Assembly: GCA_965202585.1 (NCBI GenBank)
Contig: OZ241827.1
Coordinates: forward strand, 64,170,001-64,234,000
Direction of reading: 5' to 3'
Length of the DNA: 64,000 bases
Source: Thalia democratica
Taxonomy: Eukaryota
The notes under the pieces are model-generated. The model did not search any database and had not been told where the DNA came from. It worked only from the letters and a program-made list of their open reading frames with translations. Positions 14,831 through 59,600 of this stretch are shown here, piece after piece. A program made the position numbers and the translations under genes. How positions within the stretch are numbered: position 1 is the first letter of the stretch; each line of letters starts with the position of its first letter.

Positions 14831-15130
14831 TTGTTGAATTAATTATATTTAATAGTGCTAACAGAACAACTTAACATCTTTTATAGATTACTATAGTGTG
14901 AAGTTTTGGTTTTTTTAATTTTTTTAAAATTTATATAAAGTTAGCTATAAAAATAAAATTATACTAGTATGGAAATTAAAGAAAGCGTAATTCCTCGTAA
15001 TACTACTCCGACAATAATTTGTACTTAACACAAAACTAGTAAGTAAAAAAGACACAACAGTGTTTAATATGAAATTTATTAATATAATACCCTATAGTCT
15101 ATAATAATTTTTTTAATAAATTTAAGAGTC

Positions 15131-15811: not shown

Positions 15812-15917
15812 TTTTTAACTAAACTATCTGTAAAATGAATAAAATTTAAAATGCTAAACAATTAAGTAATTATTTTATTTCTTACACAGAAAGAACAATT
15901 AATTAAGAATCATTTTA

Positions 15918-29637: not shown

Positions 29638-30650
29638 AAGCTAGACCATCGTTTATGTACAACCAAACTTTTTCTAAATCAAAACTATTTTTTAACCCGT
29701 CTAACAAAAAAAAAGTCCCACTAATTCATATAATTCTCCACCCGTTAACGATCCCTGTGCAATATCAAAAATAGAGAATTGCTTTTTTCTTTTGCCACAG
29801 GTTTCCTTGTTCATAAAGTACTGACCAAAATGTGTTTTATATTGACTTAAGTCTTCAGCAGGTACGCTAGTATAATTATCAGCCAATTTTAGTGATTACT
29901 AACTCTTCGCTGATAAACGGATAAAATCGACTACGTATAACTTAATGTACTTTTGTTTTTCAAAACTAGTGTAACAATTAGAGACTTGGCCCGCATCGGT
30001 CCATGGTCCAAGTTTAAATTTTAAAAGCACAACGTTGTTGACGCAGTCAATCTTTACCTTTAATATTCGACCTACATCAGACATAGAAGCGTTGATTAAT
30101 CTACACTTTAGTTGTGGTAGGAAGTTATACTTATGGTCATTGACCGTTATGTATGTTTTTTTAACGAGATTTTTTTAATTCTGTCATGTATTTTTAGCCT
30201 TCAGACTAATATCTTTAAAAGTTTTGTCAGTACATTTTTTGTGACCATTAGTTATATTGACGTTTAATAAGGTTGATACTCACTCACTGAATTGTCATTG
30301 CAGTCAGAAGTTTTATCCGAAAGTACAACTAAACTTTTAATTTATACCCGCACAATCTTCAGCAGTTGTTAGAAACGGTTGCTAGTTGTTCTTACTGAAC
30401 TCCATTTTTTGCACCATTTTGATTAGATATTCTTTTAAAGCCTGCATATGTTGGATTGGCTTAGGTGTGCGTGTTGTTTTTAATCCTAATGTTTCGTGTT
30501 CTCCTGCAGCCACATGATCTTCTTCTTTAAAGATCTTCGCTCTCCACCGCATACGTCTTACCAGGTGTTGAGTATTTTGTATCAGTGCTTCCTTATATGC
30601 ATCTTGTTTAGCACACATGATAGTTCTTGGTATAGTGCTTGATTTTATAC
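29638..30650 (-). mobile_element. Degenerate Penelope-like RT fragment, same family as 12670-14830
   Basis: HLVRRMRWRAKIFKEEDHVAAGEHETLGLKT nearly matches the 12670 copy; GGELYELVGL and LYINDGLA (decayed LYRDDGL) RT motifs. Confidence 0.8.
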
Positions 30651-32229: not shown

Positions 32230-33660
32230 TTTAGTTCAAAATAAATATTTTAGTTATATCTTCAATTAAAAGTTTAACTGACAGTAATGCATTGATTACC
32301 TTTAAAGACCACAAGGAAAACTTTCTTGATAACTTAAAATGCAAACTCCTGAATCCAGCAAAATCAAGTATTGGAATATTCAGTAAAATAAATTTAGACG
32401 AAATAACCCCTAAAATTAAAGAAAAGACTAAATTGCAACAGTGGAAAAACAACGACAATGTTATAACATGGTTTAATAAAATCACCAACAAAAGTAGTTA
32501 CACGTTCATAAAATTAGAAGTAAACGAAAATAACCAGCTCAGACATAGAAACTATACTGCACTCTTGCAAGACAGTCCTTATACATGACAACATAGTTTG
32601 GATCAAAAAGGCTGCGAAAGAAGACCTATTTGACGTGCCGATTGGAAGTTACCATGGCGCGAATTAACCGATTTGTTCCTATTAAATAATCTAAACCAAC
32701 TTTTATCTAAAGAAAACTTCGGGTTATACCGCGATGATGGCCTTTTGATAATTAGAAAACGTTCAAAAAGAATCATAGAAAAAGGATATCAGAGCAGATT
32801 TCTCGGAACAAAACTTAAGAAATAAGATTGAAATAGACAGCAGCAAGGTATATTTCCTGGATATTTCACTTGATCTACAAAATACTTTTACCATCTCTAC
32901 AGAAAATCTAACGCAAAAGAAAAATACATACGTATAAATTCTAACCACCCACCAAGTGTCAAAAGAGTGCTACATAATATGATACAAAATAGATTATCTA
33001 CTCTGTCAAAAAACGAATCTATGCTTAACAAATACAAAGAACCGTACGAAGAAGCGTTAAAAACAGTGACTTTAATAAGGTCCTAGAATACTCAAATCAA
33101 AAGGTGGCACAGCTGACAAAAAAAGAAAAAGAAGAAAAAAAAAGAAAGTATTGTACTACAACCCTCCATTTAGCTCAACTTTAAAAACCAAACTAGGAAA
33201 AGAATTTCTAAAGCTAGTGGACAAACACTTCCCAGAAAAACGGACCTCTTAATAAAATTCTGAACAGAAACACGATCAAAATTAGTTACTCATCTATGCC
33301 TAACATAGAATCTGGAATTAGTAAATCAAATCTTAAAATCATAGAGGAGAGCAAAAGCCAAGAGAAAAATGAAACAACTTGCAATTGCAGAGTTAAAACA
33401 TCATGCCCAGTGGAAGGTAAATGTCTTTCCAGAAGTGTTATATACAAAGCCACGGTAACACACAACAACAAAGAGTACCATTATATTGGATCTACAGCAA
33501 AAAACCTTTAAAATAAGATAAAACGAGCATATGCACAGTTTCAGAAACAAAAATATGAGAGAATCAACGAAACTGAGCTCTTTCATCCAGGCCGCCAAAT
33601 CCAACAAAGAAATGACCAAAAAATGTTAAGTGGAAGATAATACATAAAATTAATCAACGC
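32230..33660 (+). mobile_element. Degenerate Penelope-like element, left part (RT and GIY-YIG), interrupted by the LTR element
   Basis: ITFKDHKENFLDNLKCKLLNPAKSSIG; FGLYRDDGL; NCRVKTSCPVEGKCLSRSVIYKATV...YIGST; frame ends ...VKWKIIHKINQR at the LTR junction. Confidence 0.88.
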
Positions 33661-34956
33661 TGTAGGACACTTGTGCAAAATCTTATTTTGCCTTGTGTCC
33701 AAATTTTTATAATTTAAAGGAATTAATGTTTTTCACTTGATATTATATTTTTTCCTTAAAAAAGAAAACATTGAATAAATATAGTAAAACTGTTTTCCGA
33801 AAAAAAAAACTATTTTTCACAAACAAAATAAGTGCTAGTTAAAATGATTGTTGTCTTTGATTTCTTGATTAAACTGGAAATTGCTGTTCATGGGTGTGGC
33901 TAAGAGAAAATGAGAGAATAAAATGAGAGATCAAGTGATCTACAGTCCAAAGTCCAGGAAAATGAGAGAATCAAATGAGAGATTGCGTGATTTATAGAAA
34001 ATTCTAGAAAAAGAATTCAAAATCTATAAATACGCCCGATCAGAGCATGAAGCGGGCAATCCACCACGAAACAAGCAAGAAGCGACACTCTGCTCCGCAA
34101 AAGAAATAACATCGTCAATAAACAAGCAAGATGATTTCAACAACCATCTAATCGAAGAAGCCCACGCATTCTGTGGCATCGAGAATTTCAGTACTGGAAG
34201 TACTCTTTCATCAAACACTCTAAGTTGGACTCCACGATCGAGTCACAGCGTTCAATCAAGTTTAAGTATACAATCATCTCAGCAAGTAAACCCACACAGA
34301 CTGGGCGCCAACCTTAGCTACACTTCAACGAACAAGTTGTTTTCATACTGTTTGATTCTATCGTATTGTTTATATATTCATATTATCATATATACTCACT
34401 ATTGTATTTGCATTGTAATATTTATATATATTTATATCACCGCATTTATTCACTATTGTATTTGTATTGTAATAATTATACATATTGATATCATCGTGCT
34501 TATTTATTATCGTATTTTATCGCCCGCTCTGCTTACGGAAAGGAAAGGAAAACAGACCACGCTACGTTTAGCAAGATTCTGCAAACGAGACGGACCAACG
34601 TCGAGTGCCAGAAGCTGAGCGAACGGAGACCAGTGACACGCCAAAGGGGGAATCCGGAGCGCGTTTCCTTCTATTTGTTAACATTAAGTGTCTAAACTTA
34701 TTGTGAGCTGTCATTGCGTATTTGTACATAATAAACCAAAATTATTTAGTTTCATTATATTTAGTTAAATAATTATATCATTATGTCCTTAAAACCCTTA
34801 AAAAAGGCATTAGTCCTGAAGGCACCCAGAACTCGGTCCAGAACCGAGATAAGTTGTTCCGAGACTACTGCTAACCTGGAATCCGATGAGATTGTTGAGA
34901 CTGAAACCGAGGCAATTGCGAAGGAAACCAGTGAGGCTCCTAGTCTGGGTAACAAT
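33661..34956 (+). repeat. 5' LTR (1296 bp, TGTAGG...GGTAACAAT)
   Basis: Matches 46097-47392 with only four substitutions noticed and no net indel; TATAAA at 34025-34030; AATAAA at 34730-34735; internal AAATGAGAGA repeats at about 33905-33985. Confidence 0.95.
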
Positions 34957-37596
34957 AATGGCGTCCTCCGAAGCGAACATCCGCCGACCACAGAAGACAA
35001 CACTAAAAAAATTATCGAATTAACTAAATTAGTAGAAAATAGTAACAAACTAATAGAAGATAGATTTAATACTATTTTAAAAACAATTTCTATACAGAAT
35101 TCTCAATCATCGAATATCCCTACAAATACCGAGGTAAGTACAATAAATAATCTTAACCCACATATAAATTTAACAGATCCTGAAAAAATACGACCAACAA
35201 TGACAACAGAGGCGGTATCGACATTACCTACCAACAAAATCCAGACACCAATTCCATTATCAAGCCATGCGTCCAAATCTTGCACAATACCAAGCAATTA
35301 CAATTCAATTTTAAACGTTGACCATTCAAACGAAAGAAATGGAATTCAACCACATGATAATAACCAGTCGATTGCACAGTTACAAAGGCAAATTGACAAC
35401 CTCCAGAAGACAATAAACCAAAATCCTATCCACGAACGTATAACAACCCAACCTAACACCAACCACATTTTTGGCAACCACGATCCGATACCCAGAAATC
35501 AACACTTCCAGCAAACAGTTAATTCGAGGCTATCAAATAGCATTTCTGATAAAGCATTCAGAAAAATTTCAGGGGAAAGACCAAGAGAGGAGTTAAGCCT
35601 CTTCGAGGTTCAATGTAAAAGCCAAGGAACTTTTGATGATCAAACACAATTTCAGATTATTATCGGAATCTGGCCAATTAATGACGTACTTTCTTATGTA
35701 AAAGCTGGCAAACCATCTAGTTATATCTGTTTTAAACAAGAAATCTTAAGTATGACCCCATGTTTGCCAGACATACTTAAACCTCCACCTATCTGGAGCA
35801 GCACTCCAACCTTTAAAGATATCCATCAACTAATATCAAAAGGTCTTACATGCTCTCAAGATGACCTTTACAAACATTTGGCACTGATTTATTGCCCGAA
35901 ATGGGCTAGTAACATTCTAAAAAAAGACCTTGAATTACAAATTGATAAGTTCAAAGGTCGGGTTATGTGGACTCTTGAACAAGGCCCAATTGATTTGAAA
36001 ACAAATTACAACAATAGAAAATCAAACAACCAGTATAATTTTAATGACAAATTTCACAACGCATTCAACCAACAACAAAACCAAAACTTTTCAAATTATA
36101 ACCAGAACAGATACAATCAAGCACAAAACTATAGACCAAATCTAAACCAGTTTGATAATAAAAATAATAACAGGTGTAGTTATCACGTTAGGTTCGGTGA
36201 AAAATCCAATAATTGTGAAGGCCAACAATGCGATATGTACCAAAAATTTTTAGAGAAAAAATTAAGCTTTCTCAAAAATAAACCTGCAGCAGTTAACATG
36301 TCAATAATACAAGATATTTCGAATGCTGAACAAAGTAAAAATTCCACTCAAGACAAACCAGCAAACAGTAATAAAGTAGATGAATGCATTACTAACGACA
36401 GAAATAATGAGGAAATTAAACAAGAAACAAACGAAATAGATGATAAATTCATTAAAAGGAAATTGCCTTATGAAACAAAACTAAAAAACAATACTGAACT
36501 ATTAATAATTGCCGACAATGAAACCTCTGTACAATATCTTTTTGATACTGGTGCAGAAGTTTCGATCATACCCAAATCCATGGTTGACACATATGAAAAG
36601 GACAAGTCAACGCCTAATATATGCGACATAAATGGCAAAACATCTAAAGCATTAGGTTATTCAATGAAGTACGTTAAAATTGGCCTGAAACCGGACCTGC
36701 CACATTCTTTCTACGTAATAGACACAGATATTCCTTTTGCAATTCTAGGGTTAGATTTCATAATTAAACATAAATTAACAATAATACCACAAGAGAAAAC
36801 TATCGTACAAGGTGATTCAGGAGTTAAACTGAAATTAAAACAGCTAACTACTCCTGAAACAAAAATGAAAATAGAAGTAGAAAATCTCCTAAATCTTTTT
36901 CCTGAAATCGACAAAGAACCAAACTACAAAGAAAAGCCCAAGCACAACCATGTCTTAGATATAAAACTTGAAAAAGAATTTTCACCCCGACACCAAAGAG
37001 CAAGGAAAACTAACAAAACTATTTCAAAGGAAATAGAAGATAATTTTGATAAATTACTCAAACAAGGGGCGGTAATAAGAGGCATTTCTGAAATAGTCTC
37101 ACCTTTAACTGTAGTCAGAAAAAAGAATGGAAAGCCAAGGGTATGTGAGGATTACCAATATATTAACCAATGCACTAAAATAATGAGCTACCCTTTACCA
37201 AATATTGACGATCTTTCTTCTATTATACCAGTCAACTCTAAAGTTTTTTCAACACTCGACCTGAGAGAAGCATATTTGAATCTTCCCTTAACTTACCGAG
37301 CACAAAAAGTAGCAGCCATGATTTCTCAATATGGCACATTTTTGCCGTTAAGAACAACCTTCGGCCTTAAGAATGCCCCAATGGCATTCCAAAGGCTTAT
37401 GGATGACATAATGGCTCCATGCCATAATTTCAGCTTTACATACATAGATGACATTATAATTTATTCGAAATCAATGGAAGAACACATGCAACATCTGTTT
37501 GAAGTATTGTTTCAACTTAACAAATTTGGATTGCATAACAATAGGAAAAATGTAAATTCGCCGCTGAAGAAGTTCAATACCTTGGACACATACTGA
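34783..37596 (+). CDS. gag-pol: Gag-protease-reverse transcriptase polyprotein (single frame; frameshifted near end of RT)
   Basis: CSYHVRFGEKSNNCEGQQC Gag CHCC-type motif; YLFDTGAEVSIIP and FAILGLDFI protease motifs; RT motifs PRVCEDY, FSTLDLREAY, FGLKNAPMAFQR, YIDDIII. RT continues in another frame as KCKFAAEEVQYLGHILSSKG from about 37550. Confidence 0.95.
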   Translation: MSLKPLKKALVLKAPRTRSRTEISCSETTANLESDEIVETETEAIAKETSEAPSLGNNNGVLRSEHPPTTEDNTKKIIELTKLVENSNKLIEDRFNTILKTISIQNSQSSNIPTNTEVSTINNLNPHINLTDPEKIRPTMTTEAVSTLPTNKIQTPIPLSSHASKSCTIPSNYNSILNVDHSNERNGIQPHDNNQSIAQLQRQIDNLQKTINQNPIHERITTQPNTNHIFGNHDPIPRNQHFQQTVNSRLSNSISDKAFRKISGERPREELSLFEVQCKSQGTFDDQTQFQIIIGIWPINDVLSYVKAGKPSSYICFKQEILSMTPCLPDILKPPPIWSSTPTFKDIHQLISKGLTCSQDDLYKHLALIYCPKWASNILKKDLELQIDKFKGRVMWTLEQGPIDLKTNYNNRKSNNQYNFNDKFHNAFNQQQNQNFSNYNQNRYNQAQNYRPNLNQFDNKNNNRCSYHVRFGEKSNNCEGQQCDMYQKFLEKKLSFLKNKPAAVNMSIIQDISNAEQSKNSTQDKPANSNKVDECITNDRNNEEIKQETNEIDDKFIKRKLPYETKLKNNTELLIIADNETSVQYLFDTGAEVSIIPKSMVDTYEKDKSTPNICDINGKTSKALGYSMKYVKIGLKPDLPHSFYVIDTDIPFAILGLDFIIKHKLTIIPQEKTIVQGDSGVKLKLKQLTTPETKMKIEVENLLNLFPEIDKEPNYKEKPKHNHVLDIKLEKEFSPRHQRARKTNKTISKEIEDNFDKLLKQGAVIRGISEIVSPLTVVRKKNGKPRVCEDYQYINQCTKIMSYPLPNIDDLSSIIPVNSKVFSTLDLREAYLNLPLTYRAQKVAAMISQYGTFLPLRTTFGLKNAPMAFQRLMDDIMAPCHNFSFTYIDDIIIYSKSMEEHMQHLFEVLFQLNKFGLHNNRKNVNSPLKKFNTLDTY
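34959..34976 (+). promoter_or_regulatory. Putative primer-binding site TGGCGTCCTCCGAAGCGA
   Basis: TGG (complement of tRNA CCA) starts 2 nt after the LTR end. The first 8 nt, TGGCGTCC, match the complement of a typical tRNA-Asn 3' end; tRNA identity is not established. Confidence 0.65.
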
Positions 37597-37613
37597 GTAG
37601 CAAAGGTTTCTAT

Positions 37614-39311
37614 ATGCAACAAAGTAAAGTTGAAGCTATCGAAAACTTCCAAACCCCACAAACCATCAAACATTTGCGGTCCTTTCTTAGCTGTCTAAAC
37701 TACTACAACAAATTCGCTCCGAAACTGGCAGAAATACTTCAACCATTATATAAATTAACAACAGGAGAGCCAAAAAATTCTAGAAAAAAATTAATCTGGG
37801 AAACTGAACACCAAGCAGCATTTGAAAAAGCTATACAAACTCTAGTTTCGGCCACTCATCTCTCTTATGAAGACCCAAAAAAAGAACTAGTTCTTTCTAC
37901 AGACGCATCCTCTACTCATATTGGAGCCGTCCTAGAACAAAAGCATGAACCAGGAAATTATAAACCTTTAGCATTTTTTTCAAAAAAACTACCAGTCCTT
38001 AAATCAGTAAGATCCGTATTTTTCAGAGAACTCACAGGTCTTTATCTGAGTATTAAACATTTTAAGGTCAGAATCATAGGAAGACAGCTTCGGGTAAGAA
38101 CAGACCATAGAGCCTTGGTAGATGCTATTAACAATGCTACGGGAAATCATTCACCAAAAGAAGAAAAATATATTGCTATAATAAAAGAATATGCCCCCTT
38201 GATGGAATTTATTCCAGGCGATCAAAACACAACAGCTGACTTATTAAGCCGTCCGGTACTCGTTGCATACAACGATAAAAACTCAGAAGAAGAGGAAGAA
38301 AACAGTGGAGAAATTGATGTTAACGATAAAACAATAAATTCTTACACAAATTATGATTTAGACCAGGAAATCACACAAAATGAATCAGAATCTAATCAAT
38401 TTATTCCCTTAAATATTAAGATAATTTCAGAAACGCAAAGTCAAGCCAATGTACATTTACCTACCCTCATAGCAAACTCTCAAAAGCAACAAAACCAGAT
38501 CATTTTTGAGTCTAGATTGATAGATAATTGTGTAGTACAAGGTATCATTGAAACAAAAACCCATAGTTTTCGTATATGGGTTCCGCCCAAATTAAGATCT
38601 AATATCTTAAATCAAAATCATAACATCTTACACCAAGGAATTGATAAAACTTTAACAGCAGTAGGATCTAATTTCTGGTGGCCAAAAACGAAAAAAGATG
38701 TTGAACTCTTTGTAAAAACTTGTATAACATGCCAAAAAGTGAAGGTAAGGAAATATAATAGACCTAAATTAGGTTGTTACCCAAATTCACTTGGAAGATT
38801 TGACTATGTTCATGCAGACTTGGTAGGACCTTTGGTTGAATCTCAAAACATGAAATATATACTTACCATTAAAGAACGGTATACTGGTCTTTTTGCATCA
38901 TGTCCCTTACCCAACAAAATGGCAGAGACCGTAAAGAACGCATTTCTCCAAAATTGGATTGGTCATTATGGAATACCATGTACAATAGTTACAGATAATG
39001 GCAAAGAATTCTTTAACCATCATTTCGAAACTATGTGTTCGGATCTATCTATCAAACATAATCTCACCGCGCCATACCACCCTGAAACCAACGGAATGGT
39101 AGAAAGACAACATAGAGAGTTAAAAACGGCCTTAAGAACATTGAAGAATAAACTTAACTGGGTGCAACATCTTCCTATTATCACTCTAGCTCTAAACAAT
39201 CAGAGCATTGGTCGTAAAGGATTTAGCCCTGCTCAATATACTTTTGGAACACCCTTAAATATTCCTGGAAAGTTATTCTTTCCGAACACAAACACATTCG
39301 AACCTCCTTAA
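37614..39311 (+). CDS. pol: RT connection, RNase H and integrase (HHCC, DDE); ends at an in-frame TAA within integrase
   Basis: LSTDASSTHIGAVL, RELTGL, RTDHRAL, NTTADLLSR (RNase H); HNILHQG...CITC (Zn finger); VHADLVGPL, IVTDNGKEF, PETNGMVERQHRELK (DDE). Confidence 0.95.
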   Translation: MQQSKVEAIENFQTPQTIKHLRSFLSCLNYYNKFAPKLAEILQPLYKLTTGEPKNSRKKLIWETEHQAAFEKAIQTLVSATHLSYEDPKKELVLSTDASSTHIGAVLEQKHEPGNYKPLAFFSKKLPVLKSVRSVFFRELTGLYLSIKHFKVRIIGRQLRVRTDHRALVDAINNATGNHSPKEEKYIAIIKEYAPLMEFIPGDQNTTADLLSRPVLVAYNDKNSEEEEENSGEIDVNDKTINSYTNYDLDQEITQNESESNQFIPLNIKIISETQSQANVHLPTLIANSQKQQNQIIFESRLIDNCVVQGIIETKTHSFRIWVPPKLRSNILNQNHNILHQGIDKTLTAVGSNFWWPKTKKDVELFVKTCITCQKVKVRKYNRPKLGCYPNSLGRFDYVHADLVGPLVESQNMKYILTIKERYTGLFASCPLPNKMAETVKNAFLQNWIGHYGIPCTIVTDNGKEFFNHHFETMCSDLSIKHNLTAPYHPETNGMVERQHRELKTALRTLKNKLNWVQHLPIITLALNNQSIGRKGFSPAQYTFGTPLNIPGKLFFPNTNTFEPP

Positions 39312-40451
39312 TTATTTGAAACAGAGATATTTATAAAAAATATGAAAGAATTTACTAGGGAGTGGAGAAACCCAGACGAAGCTACAACATATATCGAAAA
39401 ACATTTACATGAAGCAAAACAAGTTCTAGTAAAAAATCACACAAGACATTCACTAGATCATTTGTACAAAGGCCCTTTTAATGTAATAGAACGAGGTCCG
39501 CATTCTTTCATAATTGACCAAGGGTCAGAATTTAAAAAAATTGCTATTGGAAATTTGAAAGCATATTTTCCTAGATATCCAACTGCAAGTAGGGACAGAT
39601 CTGAAAATACTAACTATAATTTGAGAGCGAGAAACAAACTCAAAATTAATACAAAATTCAGCATGATGAGCGAAAACAAACTAAAATATATTCAACGTCC
39701 ATTAATCAGAGACAAATCTAATGGGCTACTATATTTAATTGATTCAGGCTCGGATGTTTCCATCATGCCTGCACATCTAACTAATTACATAAATTGCGCC
39801 AAAACTGATGAAATAAAGAGTTTCTCTGGTCAAACTGAAAGAGCACTAGGGATAAGTCAAGCTAACATTAACATCGGTATTCCCAAACTGTACTCCTACG
39901 AATTTTCAGTTTTTCCCAATGGGCACAATTTTGCAATTCTGGGACTAGATTTCATAAATCAATGGAATATCGTTATTGCTATAGCTGCAAACGCGATTTT
40001 TCATGTCAATGGCAACGATTCGCCAATCAGAATAGAAATAGAAAGAAACCATATTGAAAAAATGCAAGAAAAACCATTAGATCTTAGGACAGATCGCTCT
40101 AAAAATGATAGCAAAATAACAATACCAAAAATGAAAAAATCAATAAAGGAAACAGTTGAAGTTACAAGAATGGAAAAATATCAAAGTAAGCACGAAGGTC
40201 TTAAAAACCTCTTGACAAAGAAAGTTCGAAAGAAATTTAACCCAAGAGACCAAAAATATAATAACAACGATTTAATACATAATAAAAAAACATGTTGCAA
40301 AACTCTTTGGAACTATATCCAACTCAGAACTCAACTAGAACAGGACCGCTTCACCAATATTTTACAGCGAAATATTAAGCAAATCATGGTTGGTTTTCAC
40401 AACAAACGTAAAAAAAGTTTAAAAAAAAAAAAAACTATAATAAATAGCTAG
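39312..40451 (+). CDS. Integrase C-terminal GPY/F domain followed by a second retropepsin-like protease and a basic tail (same frame as 37614 ORF)
   Basis: 39342-37614 = 1728, so both ORFs share a frame and only TAA 39309-39311 separates them. HLYKGPFNVIERG (GPY/F); YLIDSGSDVSIMP (Asp at 39741) and FAILGLDFI. Confidence 0.88.
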   Translation, partial: LFETEIFIKNMKEFTREWRNPDEATTYIEKHLHEAKQVLVKNHTRHSLDHLYKGPFNVIERGPHSFIIDQGSEFKKIAIGNLKAYFPRYPTASRDRSENTNYNLRARNKLKINTKFSMMSENKLKYIQRPLIRDKSNGLLYLIDSGSDVSIMPAHLTNYINCAKTDEIKSFSGQTERALGISQANINIGIPKLYSYEFSVFPNGHNFAILGLDFINQWNIVIAIAANAIFHVNGNDSPIRIEIERNHIEKMQEKPLDLRTDRSKNDSKITIPKMKKSIKETVEVTRMEKYQSKHEGLKNLLTKKVRKKFNPRDQKYNNNDLIHNKKTCCKTLWNYIQLRTQLEQDRFTNILQRNIKQIMVGFHNKRKKSLKKKKTIINS

Positions 40452-42433
40452 TATCAACGTTTTAAAATTCAAATAGATTCTTTTAATTAGCTTTTATTTA
40501 ATTGATAATAATTATTTATTAACCAATTAATTCGTTTTTTTTTTTTTGTTTTTTTTTTTTTTTTAACTTAATTGAAAGACATGATAAAACAAAGGCTTAA
40601 TATAACAATACGGGTTGGAAACTAATAAATAAAGGAATCCAAAACATCACACTTAACAGTCATAACGATCATTTACACTTTGCTTCGTACAATTAAAATT
40701 ATATCGATAAATTAACTAATAGCATTTTTTTTTTAACAATCAAAAACTTTATGTATAAAACTATGTTTAAAAAAATATATAAACATAAAACTAAATAATT
40801 TAAATAAAAAGTATTAAAAATAAAAAATAATAAACAAGAAAAAAAAACAAAAAAATATATATATATATCTAAATATAAATATATTAGTATATATAAAATA
40901 TATCTGAATTCTTAAACTAACACCAAAATTTATGTACAAACACGCTTTTACTTTTTCTCAATGCATATTGGTACTACTCCATCTAATGCGAATGACTAAA
41001 TGCAGTAAACTTAGTGTGTACATACTAAATGTAAAGAAAAATCGTTTTTCTATTTTTCTCTATTTAGCTTCACTTCTGTTATTTTTATCTTTCCCGTGCA
41101 CCTGTAATTAATTTTAAATTGACATTTTTGTGTTATTATAGATAAATTTAGTAACTAAACAAGGGAATCATGTTTACGACACACCTGCAAAACAAACTTA
41201 ACTATTAGGGTTAAATTCTTTCGAATGAACTCGCTTTAAGTTTTATTAAACGTTTCCCAATTTGAATCGCTACACGTGCTTCGTTACATTGATGCACGTG
41301 TCAATAAAATCAGAAGGGCTTAAAGACTCCCTTTAACGCTTTGTTACTATCGTTAATTCTAAAATTAAAACTTAATAGCACTTGTGAACAAATTGGTAAA
41401 CGTTTCTTATCTTTTTTTCTTTCGAGTTATAACTTTCATTCACTGAAACAAGATTTATTTCAGATTTGTATTCATTTAGAACAGCTTTCATTAGAATATG
41501 TAACTCAATCTTAAAATTGTAAGTTTAGATTATGTGTTTTTGCTTCTTAGTTTGTTAATTTTTTTTAAAATAAACAAAAGTTTATTTTTGTAAAAATAAT
41601 TCTGTGTTTATTCTTTTTTCGAAATTGAATTAATAATTGTGTTAATCATAATCAAATTAGTTGCCAGATGTATGTTATTTTAATTTTCGTTATTAGAAGT
41701 ATGCATTATTACTTTTTGTCTTCGTTTTTTCTTTTCACTTTGTTTATCAAACACAGATTATAATTGACATTAAATATATCCACTGACTATTTGAATTTTA
41801 ATTTACTCTACAATTTTCTTTTTTTCTTTCTTTCCGCTTTCCACCAATCAATTGTCCCATCTTCATAAAAAAACAATACTTAAAACATGAATTATATATA
41901 TTTATACACCCTAAAAAAGAAACTTAATAGTAATAATTGTGGAATTAAGTAAATAAAAACAAAAAATTATCAAATTAGTAATACATAATTAAATATCAAA
42001 AATAAAGATATCTATAAATATACAATAATAAATATAAAACCTTGTAGTAAATATTTTGAACAATAACCAAACAAAATACGCGTAATATCAGACGATATCT
42101 CAAAATGACTACCAAGTTAATCAAACCAAACTCAATTAACCATAAGTATAATAATTTGTTTATGTAATTCCTGACCAATACATTTCAGAACAACATTCAA
42201 AATGCATGTGTAATCTATCCGCTTAATTCAGTTTAGCAATCTTCAGTCATCATCACTATTAAATAAACACTAAAAAGAACTAATATTCGGCGTTATGCCG
42301 TACATTTTGTTGATTATACATGCATTTACACAAATACACTATACACATAATTGCCTTGCCACATATCGCATAAAAACATTATTAACAAAGCTAATAACAA
42401 ACTAATATTTTCCAGATTTAGCTTTTAATAATT

Positions 42434-44257
42434 ATGAAGTTATTCTTTCTCAATATAAGTCTGTTTGCCTGTCTTTTCTTTCTTGGAGACAACGTTTTTT
42501 GTCAATCTAATAAAACAATCTTAGACCTAAGATTTCAAAATGTAGACATATGCTTCGATAAGCACATTGTAAAAACTTACTTTATAACTCCTTCAATCGG
42601 AGGTTGCGCTGAACCGGACACAACTTACCAAATAATTAAAGATATTAATATATACCCGCCTGCAGATACGACAATACACATAAACGCAATAGCGTGCAGA
42701 GAGGTCGTGTCCACGTATAAAAACATAATGTGGTGGACTTTCACAAAAAGGTCTACATTAATAAATAAAAGGTCTTTTTCAGTCGCAAGCGATCGCTGTG
42801 TAAGGTGGGTTAAGCAAAGAACTGACCCAATTCTTGGGGATCTATTTAAACATTCAATAACTCCTCATACTTATGTTACACTGAACAAAAAACAAAATAT
42901 TTTCTATTATCTTCAGGGAGTGACTGAGAATGTTAGAAACGCACAAACTTTAGAAACAACCTTAATCTTTAGTAGGCAAACCCTAACAGGTAGCCATTTT
43001 ACCACGTCAGACTTAGAATGTAATGTTTTAAAGGGGGTATGTATTTCCAAGACTGACACATTCTTATTCACTCCTTTTGAGAATAAATGTAAAACTTGGA
43101 AACCATATAAAGGGTTATCTCTACTTAAATACAACATGAAAAATGGAAACCTTTACCAGGTTCCTGAACTAGACCTTGCGTTTCATAGGTTAATACCTTG
43201 CCCTGAATATGTACACAAATGCATTAGAGAAGTCGATGAAAATAAACAAATAAGGTGTACACCCACAAATTTTGCTCTTAGTTTTTCAAATATTTCGACG
43301 CTAGTAGATGATAACTTAAAAATAAAACTAAACCAATATAATAATATAAGTGCACGAGACAATATATTAAGTCAAGCTATTCAATCTTTAGCCATTAAAA
43401 CAAATTCAGCCATAGAAAAGCTCGCCCAAGAGTTCTCAAGTGTGCTGTGCAAATTGGGTGAAATCTCAATAACCAACTTGCGCAACACCCAATATCGCAA
43501 ACCCAGTGAGACTTTGAGTCTCATGCTGGGCAGGAAAGTTAAGGCAACCATGATAGGTGAGTTACTTGCACAAATCTCGTGCACCAAAGTAAACGCAACC
43601 TTAGTACCAACTCTACGTATCGGCGATGAAATGTCTCCAAGGCCTCTATTTAGGATTCATTTCGCAAACGAGTCAAAAATCGCACAATACACTTCGGAGG
43701 GCTATTTAAGATGGGGTCTCAAAGGCTTAACCTCTCATTTAACTGAACAAGTAACCATATTTGTAATAGAAGGAATCGCCATAGCGTTTAAAAATGGGTC
43801 TCTCTTAAATGAACTGCCTGAGATAAATAAATTAGGGCTTCATCCTACTTCTGTTATTCCTGATTCTATAGACTATGATGAAGGAATACTTTTAAATGAA
43901 TTATCGACTGCGTCAGACCCAAATAATTTGGGTTCAATGAACCACATGCTGCAAAGCATACTGGGAATCACTTCTGAGCATCTTATAGCTAATGGGGTAA
44001 ACAAGGAGCTGTTAAATAAATATTTGACTGTCCCTATGAATAAAAATGAACATCTGTCCTTCATTAAAGAAATTAAACAATTCTTCCGCCCCAAAGTTTC
44101 TAACATTATAAAAAAAATCGCTCTATTCGGATCTTTAACAATCACCTTTCTAACTACGCTCTTAATAACGTATATCTTTTGTGGATTTACACTTAAAGCT
44201 ATTATTAAGAGTACCAGAACAAAAACAAAAAATAATAAAAATGAAAACCAGAGTTAA
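42434..44257 (+). CDS. env: Envelope-like type I membrane glycoprotein, 607 aa, probably class III (gB-like) fusogen
   Basis: N-terminal hydrophobic signal MKLFFLNISLFACLFFLG; Cys-rich ectodomain with NKT, NIS, NAT, NES, NGS sequons; C-terminal TM IALFGSLTITFLTTLLITYIFCGF; short basic tail; lies between pol and 3' LTR. Confidence 0.85.
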   Translation: MKLFFLNISLFACLFFLGDNVFCQSNKTILDLRFQNVDICFDKHIVKTYFITPSIGGCAEPDTTYQIIKDINIYPPADTTIHINAIACREVVSTYKNIMWWTFTKRSTLINKRSFSVASDRCVRWVKQRTDPILGDLFKHSITPHTYVTLNKKQNIFYYLQGVTENVRNAQTLETTLIFSRQTLTGSHFTTSDLECNVLKGVCISKTDTFLFTPFENKCKTWKPYKGLSLLKYNMKNGNLYQVPELDLAFHRLIPCPEYVHKCIREVDENKQIRCTPTNFALSFSNISTLVDDNLKIKLNQYNNISARDNILSQAIQSLAIKTNSAIEKLAQEFSSVLCKLGEISITNLRNTQYRKPSETLSLMLGRKVKATMIGELLAQISCTKVNATLVPTLRIGDEMSPRPLFRIHFANESKIAQYTSEGYLRWGLKGLTSHLTEQVTIFVIEGIAIAFKNGSLLNELPEINKLGLHPTSVIPDSIDYDEGILLNELSTASDPNNLGSMNHMLQSILGITSEHLIANGVNKELLNKYLTVPMNKNEHLSFIKEIKQFFRPKVSNIIKKIALFGSLTITFLTTLLITYIFCGFTLKAIIKSTRTKTKNNKNENQS

Positions 44258-44670
44258 TGACATTATAATTTGTAGCTCATACTTAATTTTTTTTTCTCTT
44301 CTTCTCCTTCTTCAAATTCTTTTGATTAATGTAAAAGCTCGCTACTTTTATTCTATTTTCTTGTCTTTATTTGGTATATCAATAAAAAAAGAAAAAATTA
44401 TACAAAACAATCTTTCTATTCTAAACACTATCTTTGCCATCCTTGACTTGAAGGACCTCTTTCTCATTTTTCTGCATAAGTCTAGATAAAAAGAAAAAGA
44501 TAGCCAAAAATTCTTTTGTTTTCTTTTTACAATAAAACAAGTTTAGTACCAATCCTTACTACATTTATGAATCGTTGATAATTTATTTTTGCTTTCTTTT
44601 TGTTACTGTAACTATAAAAAAACATTTGAATTGTCAACAGTCATTAAAAATTAAAAAAAAAAAAAAAGAG

Positions 44671-45018
44671 ATGAATCTTTTACAAGTAGAAGACCTTGAC
44701 TTTCTGTTGGACGAAGAACTACCTGAATTAGATCATGAAATGGTTGAAAACTTCTTCCGGCCAATCCAACAAGAAGAAGAGTTTGAAAAGGATAGCGACC
44801 TAGGTTATGAAAGTGACGACGAAAACAAGTACATCGAAGAGAGAGAAGCTCCACTGATAGCTCCACCAGTGCCAATCATTGAACAGAATTGGCATCGTTT
44901 GAGGGATGACGAAAGGATGTTGGATCCCGAGCTTCTAACAATCCTAATCGACATCATGTTAGAGGCCGAAAGACTGGGAGATAACGTTTTTGAAGAAGTG
45001 TATGAGGGCGACTTTTAA
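44671..45018 (+). CDS. Small acidic accessory ORF (115 aa) of the LTR element, unknown function
   Basis: ATG 44671 to TAA 45018; GC and codon-like composition clearly above the flanks; D/E-rich with PLIAPPVP; AATAAA follows at about 45045. Confidence 0.65.
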   Translation: MNLLQVEDLDFLLDEELPELDHEMVENFFRPIQQEEEFEKDSDLGYESDDENKYIEEREAPLIAPPVPIIEQNWHRLRDDERMLDPELLTILIDIMLEAERLGDNVFEEVYEGDF

Positions 45019-45125
45019 AGGAAAGGTATGTGAACATTAATGCTAAATAAAAGATTTTTTTTTTAAATTATAATAGTCATAAAAAAATTAACATGTTTTT
45101 TTTTTGTTGTTTCTTCCCAAGTATT

Positions 45126-45291
45126 NNNNNNNNNNNNNNNNNNNNNNNNNNNNNNNNNNNNNNNNNNNNNNNNNNNNNNNNNNNNNNNNNNNNNNNNNNN
45201 NNNNNNNNNNNNNNNNNNNNNNNNNNNNNNNNNNNNNNNNNNNNNNNNNNNNNNNNNNNNNNNNNNNNNNNNNNNNNNNNNNNNNNNNNNN
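45126..45291. other. Assembly gap (166 N)
   Basis: Run of N inside the 3' non-coding part of the LTR element. Confidence 1.
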
Positions 45292-46096
45292 TTGTCTATA
45301 TATGTGTGTTTATTTTTTATTATTATTATTTGTTTTTCAGATTTTTTTTTGTGTGTACCTTTGACCTTATAAACTACAATAACTCCAGGTAATTAAATAA
45401 TATTAACATTGATTTGCTTCTATCTATTCACTTTTAACCTTAAGCAATCTAGAATTCAAATCTATTATCAACACGTTTATTTGAGTTGTTACCTTTACAC
45501 ATTTTATTACCGAAATCTATCTGAGTAATTCTTTTGAAATACAAAATTTTAATATGACAACGTTGTATACTTATCGAATTAATTTTTTTTTTGAATGTTT
45601 GAACAAGTACATCATTTGAATCAGTTATAAGTTAAACTCAATTTTCTTCTATCCTTCGATGTTTAAAATTTTTCATTGTAAACCTGTTTTGTTTCTCAGT
45701 AAATCTTTGATTTTCTAATAATACATTTTTCCATTAAATATTAATATTTCTTAACTAAAGAAAATAGAAAAATAAAAAACATTGTTAAAATTGTTATTTG
45801 TACTTTAAATTTATTTGCATTTATCATCTCAACCCTCCGACAACTTGATAATGTATCATTTTTTTTTAGAAAGATTAAAGTTATTAATTTGAACATTTTT
45901 TTTTTTTTTTTTCAAGCATGATAAACCCGCTCTAATTCCTTATTATTCTTTTCTTTCAAAAGTTATTTTACACTTAGACATTTTAAGTTAATTTTCGTCC
46001 CCTTAATAATAGTTTTTTCTCATAAGTTTTTTTTACAAGTTAATAAAAAATTTTTTTAGTAAAAGAAAAATAAAAAAAAAGAAAAACATAAGTCGA

Positions 46097-47392
46097 TGTA
46101 GGACACTTGTGCAAAATCTTATTTTGCCTTGTGTCCAAATTTTTATAATTTAAAGGAATTAATGTTTTTCACTTGATATTATATTTTTTCCTTAAAAAAG
46201 AAAACATTGAATAAATATAGTAAAACTGTTTTCCGAAAAAAAAAACTATTTTTCACAAACAAAATAAGTGCTAGTTAAAATGATTGTTGTCTTTGATTTC
46301 TTGATTAAACTGGAAATTGCTGTTCATGGGTGTGGCTAAGAGAAAATGAGAGAATAAAATGAGAGATCAAGTGATCTACAGTCCAAAGTCCAGGAAAATG
46401 AGAGAATCAAATGAGAGATCGCGTGATTTATAGAAAATTCTAGAAAAAGAATTCAAAATCTATAAATACGCCCGATCAGAGCATGAAGCGGGCAATCCAC
46501 CACGAAACAAGCAAGAAGCGACACTCTGCTCCGCAAAAGAAATAACATCGTCAATAAACAAGCAAGAAGATTTCAACAACCATCTAATCGAAGAAGCCCA
46601 CGCATTCTGTGGCATCGAGAATTTCAGTACTGGAAGTACTCTTTCATCAAACACTCTAAGTTGGACTCCACGATCGAGTCACAGCGTTCAATCAAGTTTA
46701 AGTATACATTCATCTCAGCAAGTAAACCCACACAGACTGGGCGCCAACCTTAGCTACACTTCAACGAACAAGTTGTTTTCATACTGTTTGATTCTATCGT
46801 ATTGTTTATATATTCATATTATCATATATACTCACTATTGTATTTGCATTGTAATATTTATATATATTTATATCACCGCATTTATTCACTATTGTATTTG
46901 TATTGTAATAATTATACATATTGATATCATCGTGCTTATTTATTATCGTATTTTATCGCCCGCTCTGCTTACGGAAAGGAAAGGAAAACAGACCACGCTA
47001 CGTTTAGCAAGATTCTGCAAACGAGACGGACCAACGTCGAGTGCCAGAAGCTGAGCGAACGGAGACCAGTGACACGCCAAAGGGGGAATCCGGAGCGCGT
47101 TTCCTTCTATTTGTTAACATTAAGTGTCTAAACTTATTGTGAGCTGTCATTGCGTATTTGTACATAATAAACCAACATTATTTAGTTTCATTATATTTAG
47201 TTAAATAATTATATCATTATGTCCTTAAAACCCTTAAAAAAGGCATTAGTCCTGAAGGCACCCAGAACTCGGTCCAGAACCGAGATAAGTTGTTCCGAGA
47301 CTACTGCTAACCTGGAATCCGATGAGATTGTTGAGACTGAAACCGAGGCAATTGCGAAGGAAACCAGTGAGGCTCCTAGTCTGGGTAACAAT
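46097..47392 (+). repeat. 3' LTR
   Basis: Copy of 33661-34956; followed by AACGC. Confidence 0.95.
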
Positions 47393-47397
47393 AACGC

Positions 47398-49599: not shown

Positions 49600-50940
49600 A
49601 GAAAAACAATATATAAAGTCTTTTAAAGTCGGTTACTGGAGGTTTGTTCCAATATAATAAGCAATTATATACACAAATAGATGGCGTAAGCATGGGAAAC
49701 CCACTAGCGCCTACTATAGCAAATTACTTCATGGGAACATTGGAAAAAAAATCTCTTTAACACCGAAGATGAAAATAATCCAGTTTTATACCTTCGATAT
49801 GTCGACGACATATTCTGTATCTTCCGAAAAGATGTCTCATTCGAAAAATTCCACAAAAAGTTAAATAAACTACATAAGTCTATCAACTTCACATATGAAT
49901 TAGGTGGAAACGAACTCCCATTTTTGGACATTAATATCAAACTAAAGAGAGAGGAAATAACAACAAAGGTACACAAAAAAGACATTGATACAGATGTCAT
50001 TTTAAATTTTAGTGCAGTGGCACCAATTAAATGGAAAAGAGCTCTAATACTGTGGTTTGTAAACAGAGCGAGAATTATAGCTTCTATGCATAACATTTAC
50101 AAACAAGAAATCACAAGCTTAAAAGAAAAATTCTTTAAGAATGGTTATCCAAAGAAATTTGTTGATGACATAATTGAAAGATCTCTTAATATTAATAAAG
50201 ACTGCACTAAACAAAAACTAAGTAACTCAGATTTCAAAAATGTGATAAAGATACCTTATATTGGAAAACCTAGTATCGAGTATAAAAAGAAACTAGAAAA
50301 GCTTCTAAACAATTACATCGAAGAATTCAAAGTAATCTTTACCACAACAAAAGTAAGCAATTACTTCAGTAATAAAGATAGGACACCCCATGAATTAAAA
50401 TCAAACGTGGTCTATGAGTATAAATGCTCTTATGATAAGAGTATCCAATATATTGGATTCACTTCACGACCATTAGTAGAAAGAATTAAAGAACATTTAA
50501 AAGGCAAAACATCGGTATCGGACCATATTAGCAATTGTAATGTTTGTAAAAATGAAAAAATAACTGTTAATAATTTTGGAATTTTGAAAGAATGTAGAAA
50601 TAAATTTGAGACCCTGATAAGTGAAGCTCTACTAATTAAACGCTATAATCCAATTTTAAATAAACAATTAATTAAACCGGGTATTACCCACACATTAAGA
50701 ATTTTTGATTAGTTTGATATATATTAGTTTAACAATTTGTTAGTACTTATGTAAAATGTTATTTTATTAGAGTTTATAATCTTAATTTATAAAATTTTTA
50801 TATAATGTATCACTTATAAATTTTTTTTTGTATATTTAGTTGTTTATCACTAATTTTATTTATTTTGCACAGTATTTTGTTGATAATGACTTATTGAAAG
50901 TCGAAACGTCGTCATGCGAATAAATTTTAAACGTAGAATG
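49600..50940 (+). mobile_element. 5'-truncated Penelope-like element (different family), RT C-terminal half plus GIY-YIG ORF
   Basis: QIDGVSMGNPLAPTIANYFMG; frameshift in poly-A at about 49750; YLRYVDDIFCIF, LPFLDI; VVYEYKC...YIGFTSRPLVERIKEH; open to 50712. Confidence 0.9.
50861..50922 (+). ncRNA. Hammerhead-ribozyme-like motif, U3:A8 variant, at PLE 3' end
   Basis: TTGATAA-t-GACTT-attga-AAGTC-GAAAC-gtc-GTC: perfect 5-bp stem II and GUC triplet; stem I only partly paired. Confidence 0.5.
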
Positions 50941-55700: not shown

Positions 55701-55953
55701 ACTTTGTTACAACATCATTAGCAAAAAATTGAATTTATTAACTCTTTTTTATAAAAGAATAAGGTTAAATATTGATATGCAAGTTTAAGAATAACCAAAA
55801 AGGTCATAAAAAAAATTAAAACTAAACTTATTTTAAATAACTTGAAAGTTTTAAACGAAGTTAAGAAATAATAATTGATTCGTGTACATTATTGATTTAT
55901 AACAAACTTTTAACCAAGTGTAATGCAAAAGGGGATTTAAAAAAGTCAAATTC

Positions 55954-56690
55954 TGTCTTCTGTCACCAACAAAAATGACGTTAACGCTTTAAAAGAGCTG
56001 ATTATAAAAACATCAAGATGTTTTCAAAACATTAAGAGGTTTGCAATTACCAGTTATGTAACATATCACAGTAAAGCAGAGTTTACAACTATCATATCAC
56101 AGTAGTAATGAGCTACAACTATCACATCACAGTAGTAATGAGCTACAACTATCACATCACAGTAGTGAGGCGCTACAACTATCACATCACAGTGGTAATG
56201 AGGTACAACTATCACATCACAGTAGTTAGTATATACAACTCTCACATCACAGTAGTAAGGAGCTACAACTATCACATCACAGTGTTTAGTACTCTTCACT
56301 ACTGTGATGTGATAGTTGTAGCTCGTCACCGCTGTGATGTGATAGTTGTGGCTCATTCCTACTGTGATATGATAGTTGTAGTTCCTCATCACTGTGATAT
56401 GATAGTTGTAGTTCCTAACTACTGTGATGTGATAGTTGTAGCTCATTACTACTGTGATGTGATAGTTGTAGTTCCTTACTACTGTGATGTGATAGTTGTA
56501 GCTCATTACTACTGTGATGTGATAGTTGTAGTTCCTAACTACTGTGATGTGATAGTTATGAACTCTTCTTTACTACGATGTGTTACATAACTGGTAATTG
56601 CAAACTTCTCAATGTTTTAGAAACATCTTGATGTTTTTATAATCAGCTCTTTTAAAACGTTAACGTCATTTTTGTTCGTGACAGAAGACA
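55954..56690. repeat. Foldback element: ~360-bp inverted arms containing a 30-bp minisatellite
   Basis: TGTCTTCTGTCAC..ACAAAAATGACGTTAACG...GCAATTACCAGTTATGTAACA mirrored at 56580-56690; 30-bp unit (CAGTAGTAATGAGCTACAACTATCACATCA) about 7 times forward and 9 times reversed around a ~20-nt centre near 56290. Confidence 0.92.
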
Positions 56691-59600
56691 CACTTAGGAT
56701 AACTCAGGACAATTTGAATTTTTTTTTAAATCTCAGGGATTCAGGATATTTTGAAATTTTAAACACCTTAAAAACAAAAAAAAAAACTTACCTGAGAGCC
56801 CAAAAATATTTCTAAGTCATTCCTACTCATACACTTAACTCAGAATAACTCAGGTCAGTTTGATTATATTGTAAAAAGCTCAATTAATTTTAAGACTTTT
56901 TTTTTTACTTTCTTAAATAGTTTATTAAAGTTTAGAAAAATGTTTCAAAAATTAAGTAAAGAAGAATGAATGACTTATAGCTATTCTTGGGCACTCAGAT
57001 TAGTTTTTTGTTTTAAAGATAGCAACCCTAAAGATCTATGTTACTTTGATATTTATTAATTGTTGTTTAATAGGTAGAAAGTTCAAGAGAAAATTGAACA
57101 AGGAGTATTACAAAACGCACAAGTGGCTGTGTGGATACGAACAAGCTTTAGCTCTACACTGCATATTGTTTGATGGTGAGGATGCTTGGACAAAATCAGA
57201 TTTTATAAATTTAGGAATAATTGCTGTGAGAACTAGAAACCATGCCAAGTCGCCAAAGCACGTCGACAATATACTTTCTTTAAATTTACTTGGCAAAAAA
57301 TGTATACAAGCTCATTTGAGCAAAAACTACCAGAATAGCATTGATAAATACAATAAAGAAGTAATGAAAAACAGAAAAGTATTCTTAACTATAATTGATA
57401 GTGTGCTTTTCTGCGGATTCAAAGAAATAGCTTTGAGAGGGCATAATGAAATGGAAGATTATTTAAATCATTTTAGATATTTTCTTAATTTTGATACCAA
57501 ACATGACAAAGATCTTAAAACGCACTTTGAAACAAGTAGAGCATTTTCAGGAGTGTTTCCAACAATACAAAGTGAAATTTTGTTATGTGCCTGGAAAGTT
57601 AACAGGAAGGAATTTAAACCTCAAGTCTTGCAGGCAAACTTTATAGCAGTAATTGCGGACTAAACAACAGATGTGAGCGTGCAAAACCAATTGTCTATAG
57701 TGATAAGAGATACTTTCAATGAACAACGACAGTGTCGTTAAGAGGTTTTGGGATTTTTTCAGCCAAAAAGAGTAAATACAGAAGATAGTTCAGAAGTTAT
57801 TTTAAATGAGCTAGAGAAAATCCTGCAGGGTGACAAAAATAATTAATTGCTCAGACTTATGACGGTGCTTCGGTCATGAGGGGAAGAATAGCAGGGGTTC
57901 ATGTGAAAGTAAAGGAAGTTTATGAAAACGCTTATTACGTACATTGTGCTGCTCATCAGCTAAACTTAGTGCTTTCAATGGCTGCTAGTTGCAAGAGAGA
58001 GGCTAAACTTTTTTTTGTTAAACTAGATCAGATTCCTACTTTTTTAAGTCAACAGAAAGAAGACGTGTAGTTGAAGTGAATGTTCCTTCTGGATGCAAAA
58101 CTAGATGGAAATTCAACTCAAAAACCGTTTGCAAAGTTGCATAAAGAAAAGATGAGTTACTAACAGGGTTTGAATATTTTGTTAGTTACACTGACGGTTA
58201 CGGATATTCCACTACAGCTGCAGCAGAAAACTGCTCTTAAATGATAAAAAGTTCAACTTTTGGTTGAAATTCTTTTCTAAGCTTATGCCTGAAATGGGAG
58301 CCGATCATTTTAACCCGATCACTTCTAACCCGATCATTTCTAACCCGAACGTTTCCAACCCATTCTACTTGTTTATTTTCTTTTTATTTTTTAATTTTGA
58401 TTTCATGCAAAAACAAACTAGTCTTAATAAAGTTATTAAAAAAATGTGTATTCATATTTTTAGTTTCTTTATAAAATTATGATTATCATGTGTTACGTAA
58501 ATAACATTGTTTGTATAAACTTTAATTTTAGTATTAGCTTAACATAGGTTTAATTTATTTTTTTTCACCTTATTTTTTGATATTTCATTCTACACATATT
58601 TAATTTTTTTTTTCATTGTTTCATATTTTGTTGTTCTTTCAATCCACTTTAACAGACGTTTTTTGATAATAATATACAATTTACTTAATTATTTACTTTA
58701 TGTTTACTTTACAATATTTCGAACTATTCTTTGTAGGGTTTTAAAGTAAGCATTTATAATTATATTTAAGAATGATCTTATAGTAATTCACGTTACTATA
58801 ACGATTTTAACATAAGCAAATTAAAAAAAGTAAACCTTTACCATTGTAATATTTAGATACGAAATTTTTTATATTACGGTCTAAAAACTATATTGTAGGT
58901 CTGTTGTAAATGTTGTATTATTGCTGACTAATGTATTTACGTTTTATAGTAGGTTAGTTTTAAGTTTAATTTTAATAACTTTTACAAGTTGTTATACAAC
59001 TTGCCTATTAAGATAAAGGAATTCAACCAAATACTAGGAGAAATTTTAAAACTTTTGCTATATTAAGTGGAAAAGCATGATTTTTAGGTTTTATCTAGTT
59101 AAATATTAGTTATAAAAGGTACTAGGTATAAAATTGTAGTTCATATAAATTTGCCCTAAATTTAAATTCAACTTGCCAATCTGGTCTTCATACTTGAAAA
59201 ATATGTATAAACCGTATACAATTTCATCAAAGAAAAAGTACGGAGTAGTCTTTAACGGCTGCAATACTCATTATATTTCTTACATTGACAACTATCACAA
59301 CTTAATATTTAATATTTAGAATTCAAAAGACATACTTTTCCTAATGCTTTCTAAAACTAATTAAATACAATTAATTTATAATCCATTTTGAACCTTTTTA
59401 AAATAATTAATTACCACGAAAATAAATCAAAAACTCATGCAGTCATAGTTATCTTTCAGTTTAAATGGGAAATTAGCTTTTAAACAAAACTAATCTTTGT
59501 AAAAAATTTGAATAACTTTGATTTCAGTTTACTTGATTAAGATAAGATACATTATATTAGCAACTATGAGTAATTTAACAAGTTTTAAACTTATAAACCA

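Follow-up and report, generated by a model that had tools for sequence, protein, structure and literature searches.

A young Ty3/gypsy element of the tunicate Thalia democratica with an intact env predicted to encode a gB-type class III fusogen, and with a second protease domain behind the integrase

Does the long open reading frame (ORF) at 42434-44257 of a stretch of the Thalia democratica genome encode a fusion protein of the kind of herpesvirus glycoprotein B (gB), and what carries it? The stretch analysed here, in the following called the window, comprises 64,000 nt of contig OZ241827.1 (assembly GCA_965202585.1, forward-strand positions 64,170,001 to 64,234,000), and all coordinates refer to it unless stated otherwise. 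A preliminary description of these letters had proposed an env gene with a gB-like product, captured by a Ty3/gypsy lineage. According to our analysis the ORF very probably is the unbroken env of a young, multi-copy Ty3/gypsy element with long terminal repeats (LTRs), and its product is predicted to be a gB-type class III fusogen which would let particles enter new cells.

The env frame and its predicted fold

The frame begins with an ATG at 42434 and remains unbroken in the window copy up to the stop codon ending at 44257. Its product, Env, is predicted to start with a signal peptide and to end with a single transmembrane anchor; in between, the prediction has a fusion domain whose tip bears two aromatic loops, then a PH-like domain, a central helix and a crown like that of gB:

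42434-44257, plus strand: env ORF of 607 aa, its product predicted to be a fusion protein of class III, gB type (ORF list, Pfam, profile match, fold model)
42725-42745, plus strand: predicted fusion loop 1 (residues 98-104), a turn joining strand 80-99 to strand 105-116 (fold model, conservation)
42896-42916, plus strand: predicted fusion loop 2 (residues 155-161), lying between strand 146-149 and strand 161-180 (fold model, conservation)
43352-43498, plus strand: predicted long central helix (residues 307-355, 49 residues), equivalent of gB domain III (profile match, fold model)
44114-44206, plus strand: predicted transmembrane anchor (residues 561-591), followed by a tail of 16 residues (fold model, hydrophobicity)

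The general anatomy is that given in the preliminary description. Hydrophobic peaks are found at residues 1-23 (signal) and 561-591 (anchor), the ectodomain has 12 cysteines, and its mature part carries five N-glycosylation sequons (286, 304, 387, 412 and 454), with one more at residue 26. All motifs quoted there could be located (IMWWTFT at 98, NIFYYLQ at 155, VLCKL at 337, RKPSETLS at 355, ISCTKV at 381, MSPRPLF at 400). The two aromatic patches, IMWWTFT and NIFYYLQ, had been suspected to be bipartite fusion loops, and the model is consistent with this as it places both between strands. Among the relatives that have residues at these positions, 37 of 41 carry two or more aromatic residues at the first patch and 38 of 42 at the second. 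Of 430 segments of six residues, the 11 richest in aromatics all lie inside the two patches (the median segment has 0.46 aromatics). Therefore, these patches are not due to chance. Further hallmarks of class III appear in the model, namely an elongated beta fusion domain bearing the two hydrophobic loops, and a PH-like domain together with the long central helix. The ratio of nonsynonymous to synonymous differences (pN/pS) is 0.31 for env and indicates selection; this ratio and those given below are uncorrected and come from one copy pair with synonymous sites near saturation. No furin site of the form R-X-[KR]-R was found in the whole Env sequence. Since this site is lacking and no F family appeared in the Pfam scans, an F-type (class I) errantivirus env was rejected.

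From VLCKL onwards a gB core pattern had been noticed by eye. Indeed, residues 322-417 match the Pfam family Glycoprotein_B (PF00606) with E 1e-5 and 25.6 bits. When PDB was searched with the single Env sequence, gB came up at E 0.3-2.4 only (11 of 12 rows); with a profile of 51 sequences the match reaches E 9e-20. Over nearly the whole ectodomain gB is ranked first (407-430 aligned residues, model 35-507), at 9-14% identity to herpesvirus gB. In sequence profiles the C-terminal half of Env matches gB and the N-terminal half rhabdovirus-type G, and PF00974 is matched in Env relatives. A shallow profile of the N-terminal half, built from 12 sequences, gave no PDB match at E up to 10; the rhabdovirus-type link depends on the deeper alignment. 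A weak Pfam match to Monjiviricetes_fusion (E 7e-5) was also obtained, and the nearest ESM Atlas clusters belong mostly to Negarnaviricota (0.89). The proposal of a gB-like class III fold with a two-loop fusion domain is supported, even though only the C-terminal half matches gB by sequence profile.

Several points weigh against the assignment. The 25.6 bits of the single sequence compare with a curated Pfam gB cut-off of 43, which only one of 37 Env relatives passes. The fit of the whole chain to gB is loose (TM-score 0.26-0.41, root mean square deviation mostly 12-14 Å, predicted TM-score 0.52), which may be put down to domain orientation in the monomer model. The ESM Atlas matches all stay below 0.9 and are leads only. 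Herpesvirus gB, moreover, needs partner glycoproteins to function. For gB-type errantiviruses the entry mechanism is called unknown in a recent survey (PMC13524379). In summary, Env shares the build of gB without being a herpesvirus gB, for which it would have to pass the PF00606 cut-off; judged by sequence, its resemblance to gB exceeds chance, though it is weak for a single sequence.

The carrier element and the expression of env

The env frame is part of a complete LTR element of 13.7 kb (33661-47393):

33657-33660, no strand: left copy of a 4-bp target-site duplication, right copy at 47394-47397 (flanking comparison)
33661-34957, plus strand: 5' LTR, 1,297 bp, ends TG...TA, 4 mismatches to the 3' LTR
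46097-47393, plus strand: 3' LTR (LTR pair comparison)
34959-34968, plus strand: primer-binding site, 10 nt, complementary to the 3' end of the genome's tRNA-Asn(GTT) with CCA added
34783-37596, plus strand: frame with gag, first protease (PR1) and N-terminal part of the reverse transcriptase (RT) (ORF list, Pfam)
37545-39311, plus strand: frame with C-terminal part of RT, RNase H and integrase (ORF list, Pfam)
39312-40451, plus strand: C-terminal part of the integrase including the GPF motif, followed in the same pol frame by the second protease and a basic tail (ORF list)
44671-45018, plus strand: small acidic ORF, 115 aa, 3' of env, without Pfam match

The 4-bp duplication and the same LTR ends recur in 10 of 11 element copies compared. 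The primer site begins one base past the 5' LTR, and a genome search for its first 17 nt gave 18 occurrences; at 802-2525 of locus L086, tRNA genes for Asn, Asp, Thr and Gly lie clustered. The first ATG of gag lies 58 codons inside the 5' LTR, and the frame passes through the primer site (34783-34968), and a gag frame begun before the LTR end is also present in a sister subfamily and in all five distant loci with an LTR pair. From the pol order protease-RT-RNase H-integrase, the RT motif YIDD and Ty3 as the best solved relative (E 5e-81; next best 4e-35) we conclude that this is a Ty3/gypsy (Metaviridae) element, as had been supposed; LTRs, target duplication and tRNA primer site agree with this. 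A Kuafuortervirus was rejected, because these are described with IADD, VADD or LADD as RT motif and a length of 5-6 kb (PMC11673190).

Within the window copy pol is broken by a frameshift in RT near 37545-37596 and by an in-frame stop (39309-39311) after the integrase core. This copy is unable to make full Pol and would need it in trans. Among the ten other copies fetched whole, nine have a continuous gag-pol frame of 1,822-1,898 codons, and the env frame (611 codons) is open in all ten. In 13 copies of the window subfamily the two LTRs share 98.1-100% identity (6 pairs without any difference), and in 6 copies of the sister subfamily 99.6-99.9%; both subfamilies must therefore be young. A genome search for env, in which 72 of 167 candidates were scored, yielded 12 intact copies at 99-100% identity, 5 that are truncated or contain stops, 5 intact ones at 61%, 9 others, partial or broken, at 47-97%, and 41 at 24-28%. 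Further gB-type env families of about 570-610 codons, 24-28% identical and with many intact copies, exist in this genome, whose set of such families is unusually rich. Copies of distant families (L063/L064 and L067/L068) have intact gag and env and identical LTR segments, with most or all of pol missing. A non-autonomous relative (L090, L073 and L091, at G000:C7:3006000-3020000; also L074) is about 7.5 kb long and has two LTRs of 1,173 bp without any difference; it carries gag and a PR1-like domain with a changed catalytic motif, and gave no RT or env match. The small acidic ORF has 113-115 aa in 14 of 17 env loci; its counterpart at the same place in the sister subfamily is acidic, too, with 121 aa, 26% identity and a common GYE-D-D motif.

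How, then, might env be expressed? A genomic RNA starting in the 5' LTR would give one Gag-Pol polyprotein which begins inside the LTR, and Env would likely come from a second, spliced RNA and its own ATG, by means of two candidate sites:

35134-35139, plus strand: candidate splice donor in gag, its codon position shared by the two subfamilies
42400-42415, plus strand: candidate splice acceptor, a pyrimidine-tract CAG 18 nt 5' of the env ATG

The donor has the GTAAG form in 16 of 18 fetched copies. The acceptor is present in 16 of 17 env loci and is the sole pyrimidine-tract CAG in the 1,973-nt spacer, just as there is a sole one in the 1,548-nt spacer of the sister subfamily. Across 8 loci of the sister subfamily the distance from acceptor to ATG varies between 43 and 46 nt, and in the window subfamily an in-frame stop follows the acceptor in all 16 loci having it; on these grounds a spliced Gag-Env fusion was rejected. 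As this distance does not preserve a reading frame, translation of env would begin at its own ATG.

As an alternative, env could be transcribed from an internal promoter in the 2-kb spacer, the acceptor then serving a short intron nearby or trans-splicing of a spliced leader instead of the gag donor. Trans-splicing occurs in tunicates, the spacer is long, and TATA-like words stand 20-60 nt 5' of env in 4 of 6 distant families, in none of which the acceptor pattern was seen within 70 nt. Some tunicate Tor elements are also described to use an internal env promoter (PMC4402516). However, TATA-like words are common in such AT-rich DNA, and a consensus donor at the same gag codon in both subfamilies speaks for the spliced RNA, even if coding constraint could explain part of it. 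We consider an internal promoter possible, though the less likely explanation.

A second protease domain behind the integrase, and other features of the window

The polyprotein holds two aspartic protease domains:

36490-36822, plus strand: first aspartic protease domain (PR1), D-T-G (Pfam, motif)
39687-40016, plus strand: second aspartic protease domain (PR2), D-S-G, 3' of the integrase GPF motif in the pol frame (Pfam gag-asp_proteas, E 3e-4 and 6e-5)

Two protease stretches per polyprotein were detected by Pfam in each of three polyproteins. By its sequence PR2 resembles a retropepsin, with D-[ST]-G and, further downstream, a hydrophobic-Gly motif, spread over about 110 aa. In all 19 copies examined (13 + 6) the catalytic motifs of both domains are undamaged, as they are in a third, 1,964-aa database protein. 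The segment consisting of integrase end and PR2 was matched whole in 24 of 150 scored genome places (631 candidates), all belonging to the window and sister subfamilies, and of the distant loci with env, the three whose integrase end could be located lack PR2. Word-limited searches, which are weak evidence on range, returned this segment in 1 of 926 longer proteins, PR2 plus tail in none of 151 candidate proteins, and no confirmed case among 81 pattern matches to the segment in metagenomes. Within these searches PR2 is confined to this lineage and is under selection, and would have been added there to the C-terminal end of the polyprotein.

No precedent for a second protease in LTR elements came up in the literature searched on this subject and on ascidian elements, subscription journals, RepBase and GyDB lying outside this search. 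In the survey PMC13524379 the word 'protease' occurs a single time in the main text and is absent from the structure table, and no precedent was found there; likewise, none appears among the 8 mentions of 'protease' in a paper on rotifer elements with extra ORFs (PMC5408684). PR1 and PR2 are 28-38% identical to each other, and 18-33% to proteases of other families. A protease tree made from rows of this genome and P0082 has only three long branches and for that reason does not separate a duplication of PR1 from a capture. P0082 and P0002 may be parts of one element, a guess from their similar divergence.

We think it fairly probable that PR2 is still active, and it would then likely cut a site that PR1 does not. 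On the other side, PR2 evolves faster than PR1 (pN/pS 0.44, 95% interval 0.33-0.60, compared with 0.27; RT 0.10), and taken alone it scores below the Pfam cut-offs. PR2 might instead be a duplicate that is decaying or without catalytic activity and has been retained only for structural reasons, as a spacer or as a partner in a dimer. Its higher pN/pS would fit this, as would its identity among lineages of 46-63% versus 66-83% for PR1, and the PR1-like domain with a changed motif in the non-autonomous relative tells that idle proteases do occur in this lineage. However, all three lineages have retained D-[ST]-G and ILGLDF although synonymous sites are close to saturation, and the pN/pS of PR2 is below that of the tail behind it (0.77, 0.58-1.04), the intervals just touching. 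An idle PR2 is therefore possible, though in our judgement unlikely. A bolder reading combines both proteins of the element: a fixed, active and separately evolving PR2 at the end of Gag-Pol would have its own job (for instance, it might process Env or the end of the integrase, form pairs with PR1 or cleave a defence protein of the host), and Env would at the same time link rhabdovirus G and herpesvirus gB at the sequence level within one chain. To this combination we give somewhat less than an even chance.

Outside of the element, an old large inverted duplication (12671-30569; arms 80-90% alike, with a 2-kb internal repeat unit) holds two paralogous ORFs of about 230 aa, at 15131-15814 (minus strand) and 27118-27873 (plus strand). 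A Penelope-like fragment at 49720-50712 consists of an RT end and a GIY-YIG domain (Pfam E 1e-6). Arrays of a 30-bp tandem repeat form an inverted pair at 55949-56695, a 15-bp array is located at 61726-61925, and fragments at 57004-57663 and 62291-62677 look by eye like hAT-type transposase. Elsewhere in the genome, several broken nuclear copies of COX1 occur at G000:C4:56844236-56944224 (L088, L089). The genome's COX1 has 32 AGA/AGG codons, including conserved glycine positions, ATA at methionine positions, and TGA for Trp. Reading AGA/AGG as glycine, ATA as methionine and TGA as Trp is the tunicate mitochondrial code (NCBI table 13), which makes a tunicate the likely host.

Relation to known elements and possible role of Env

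Env-carrying Ty3/gypsy elements have been reported across animals in a number of 1,512 (Chary & Hayashi, eLife 2026, PMC13524379). According to this survey, gB-type env in Ty3/gypsy elements is known across animal phyla including tunicates and is argued to be ancient rather than freshly captured, and nine ascidian elements are listed, all of the gB type. Together with the like pattern which Env and its relatives show by eye in domains I-II (8 of 10 cysteines of the published rows are present in Env) this places the env in an already described kind. It is a well-supported conclusion that it is a further member of the gB-type errantiviruses and not a discovery in itself. Of the capture of a class III fusogen by a Ty3/gypsy lineage, as first proposed, fold, two-loop fusion domain and host element are supported, but the implied surprise is not.

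The nearest known system is the tunicate group 'C3' of that survey. As described there, it shares the order LTR-gag-pol-env, a Ty3/gypsy pol, an env of signal, ectodomain and transmembrane segment with gB-like domains, two hydrophobic loops and no fixed furin site, and the occurrence in multiple, young copies. Our element differs by the second protease after the integrase, where the survey notes chromodomains, by LTRs of 1.3 kb compared with 0.27-0.79 kb in the six ascidian rows listing LTRs, by the tRNA-Asn primer, which is named for no ascidian row, and by the extra acidic ORF 3' of env. From herpesvirus gB, Env is set apart by its low identity, an ectodomain of about 530 aa and a very short cytoplasmic tail, and the element lacks genes for partner glycoproteins. 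Unlike rhabdovirus G, orthomyxovirus GP75 or baculovirus gp64, Env matches gB in its C-terminal half, and the ranking of the whole protein favours gB. The gB- or chuvirus-like glycoproteins of mosquito BEL/Pao elements (cited in PMC13524379) are likewise class III env proteins of LTR retroelements, to which the weak Monjiviricetes_fusion match may be added; here, however, the carrier is Ty3/gypsy. A literature search on the gB-like env of nematode Tas elements, which the preliminary description had mentioned, returned no entries. The Tor elements of Oikopleura are tunicate LTR elements with env as well, expressed from the LTR or an internal promoter (PMC4402516), but appendicularian errantiviruses are all listed with F-type env (PMC13524379).

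By analogy with gB and rhabdovirus G, Env would form trimers on budding particles, insert its two loops into the target membrane and refold into a hairpin, for which furin cleavage would not be needed. Env may be of class III and still not act in infection by free particles: it could mediate passage from cell to cell, block receptors, confer resistance to superinfection or depend on a host partner, the element spreading mainly inside cells. The discussion of PMC13524379 indeed finds functional data for gB-type errantivirus env absent from the literature, and env persists where pol is broken or deleted, as in the window and in the distant-family copies mentioned above. However, both loops, the cysteines, signal peptide and anchor are all retained, env has the pN/pS of 0.31 given above, and it is carried along by copies that are young and mobile, all of which would be expected if the fusogen works. 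We regard a role apart from infection as quite unlikely. Highly improbable is a recent, separate capture from a rhabdo- or chuvirus-like negative-strand RNA virus, or a recombinant of G-like and gB-like halves, in place of descent from old gB-type errantivirus stock: the N-terminal profile, the Monjiviricetes_fusion match and the Negarnaviricota clusters point that way, but gB ranks first over nearly the whole ectodomain, several env families at 24-28% identity reside in related elements of the same genome, and the fusion domain follows, by eye, the published ascidian set (PMC13524379).

Within the gB-type errantivirus stock, Env is a compact, intact and recently spreading protein in an invertebrate chordate, without partner glycoprotein genes beside it. 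This makes it a useful object for testing whether such proteins fuse membranes unaided, a point left open by the published survey. The part that a retroelement specialist would not expect is the second protease, which makes the element a variant; if PR2 is active, it would stand for a new way to process the polyprotein or to counter the host.
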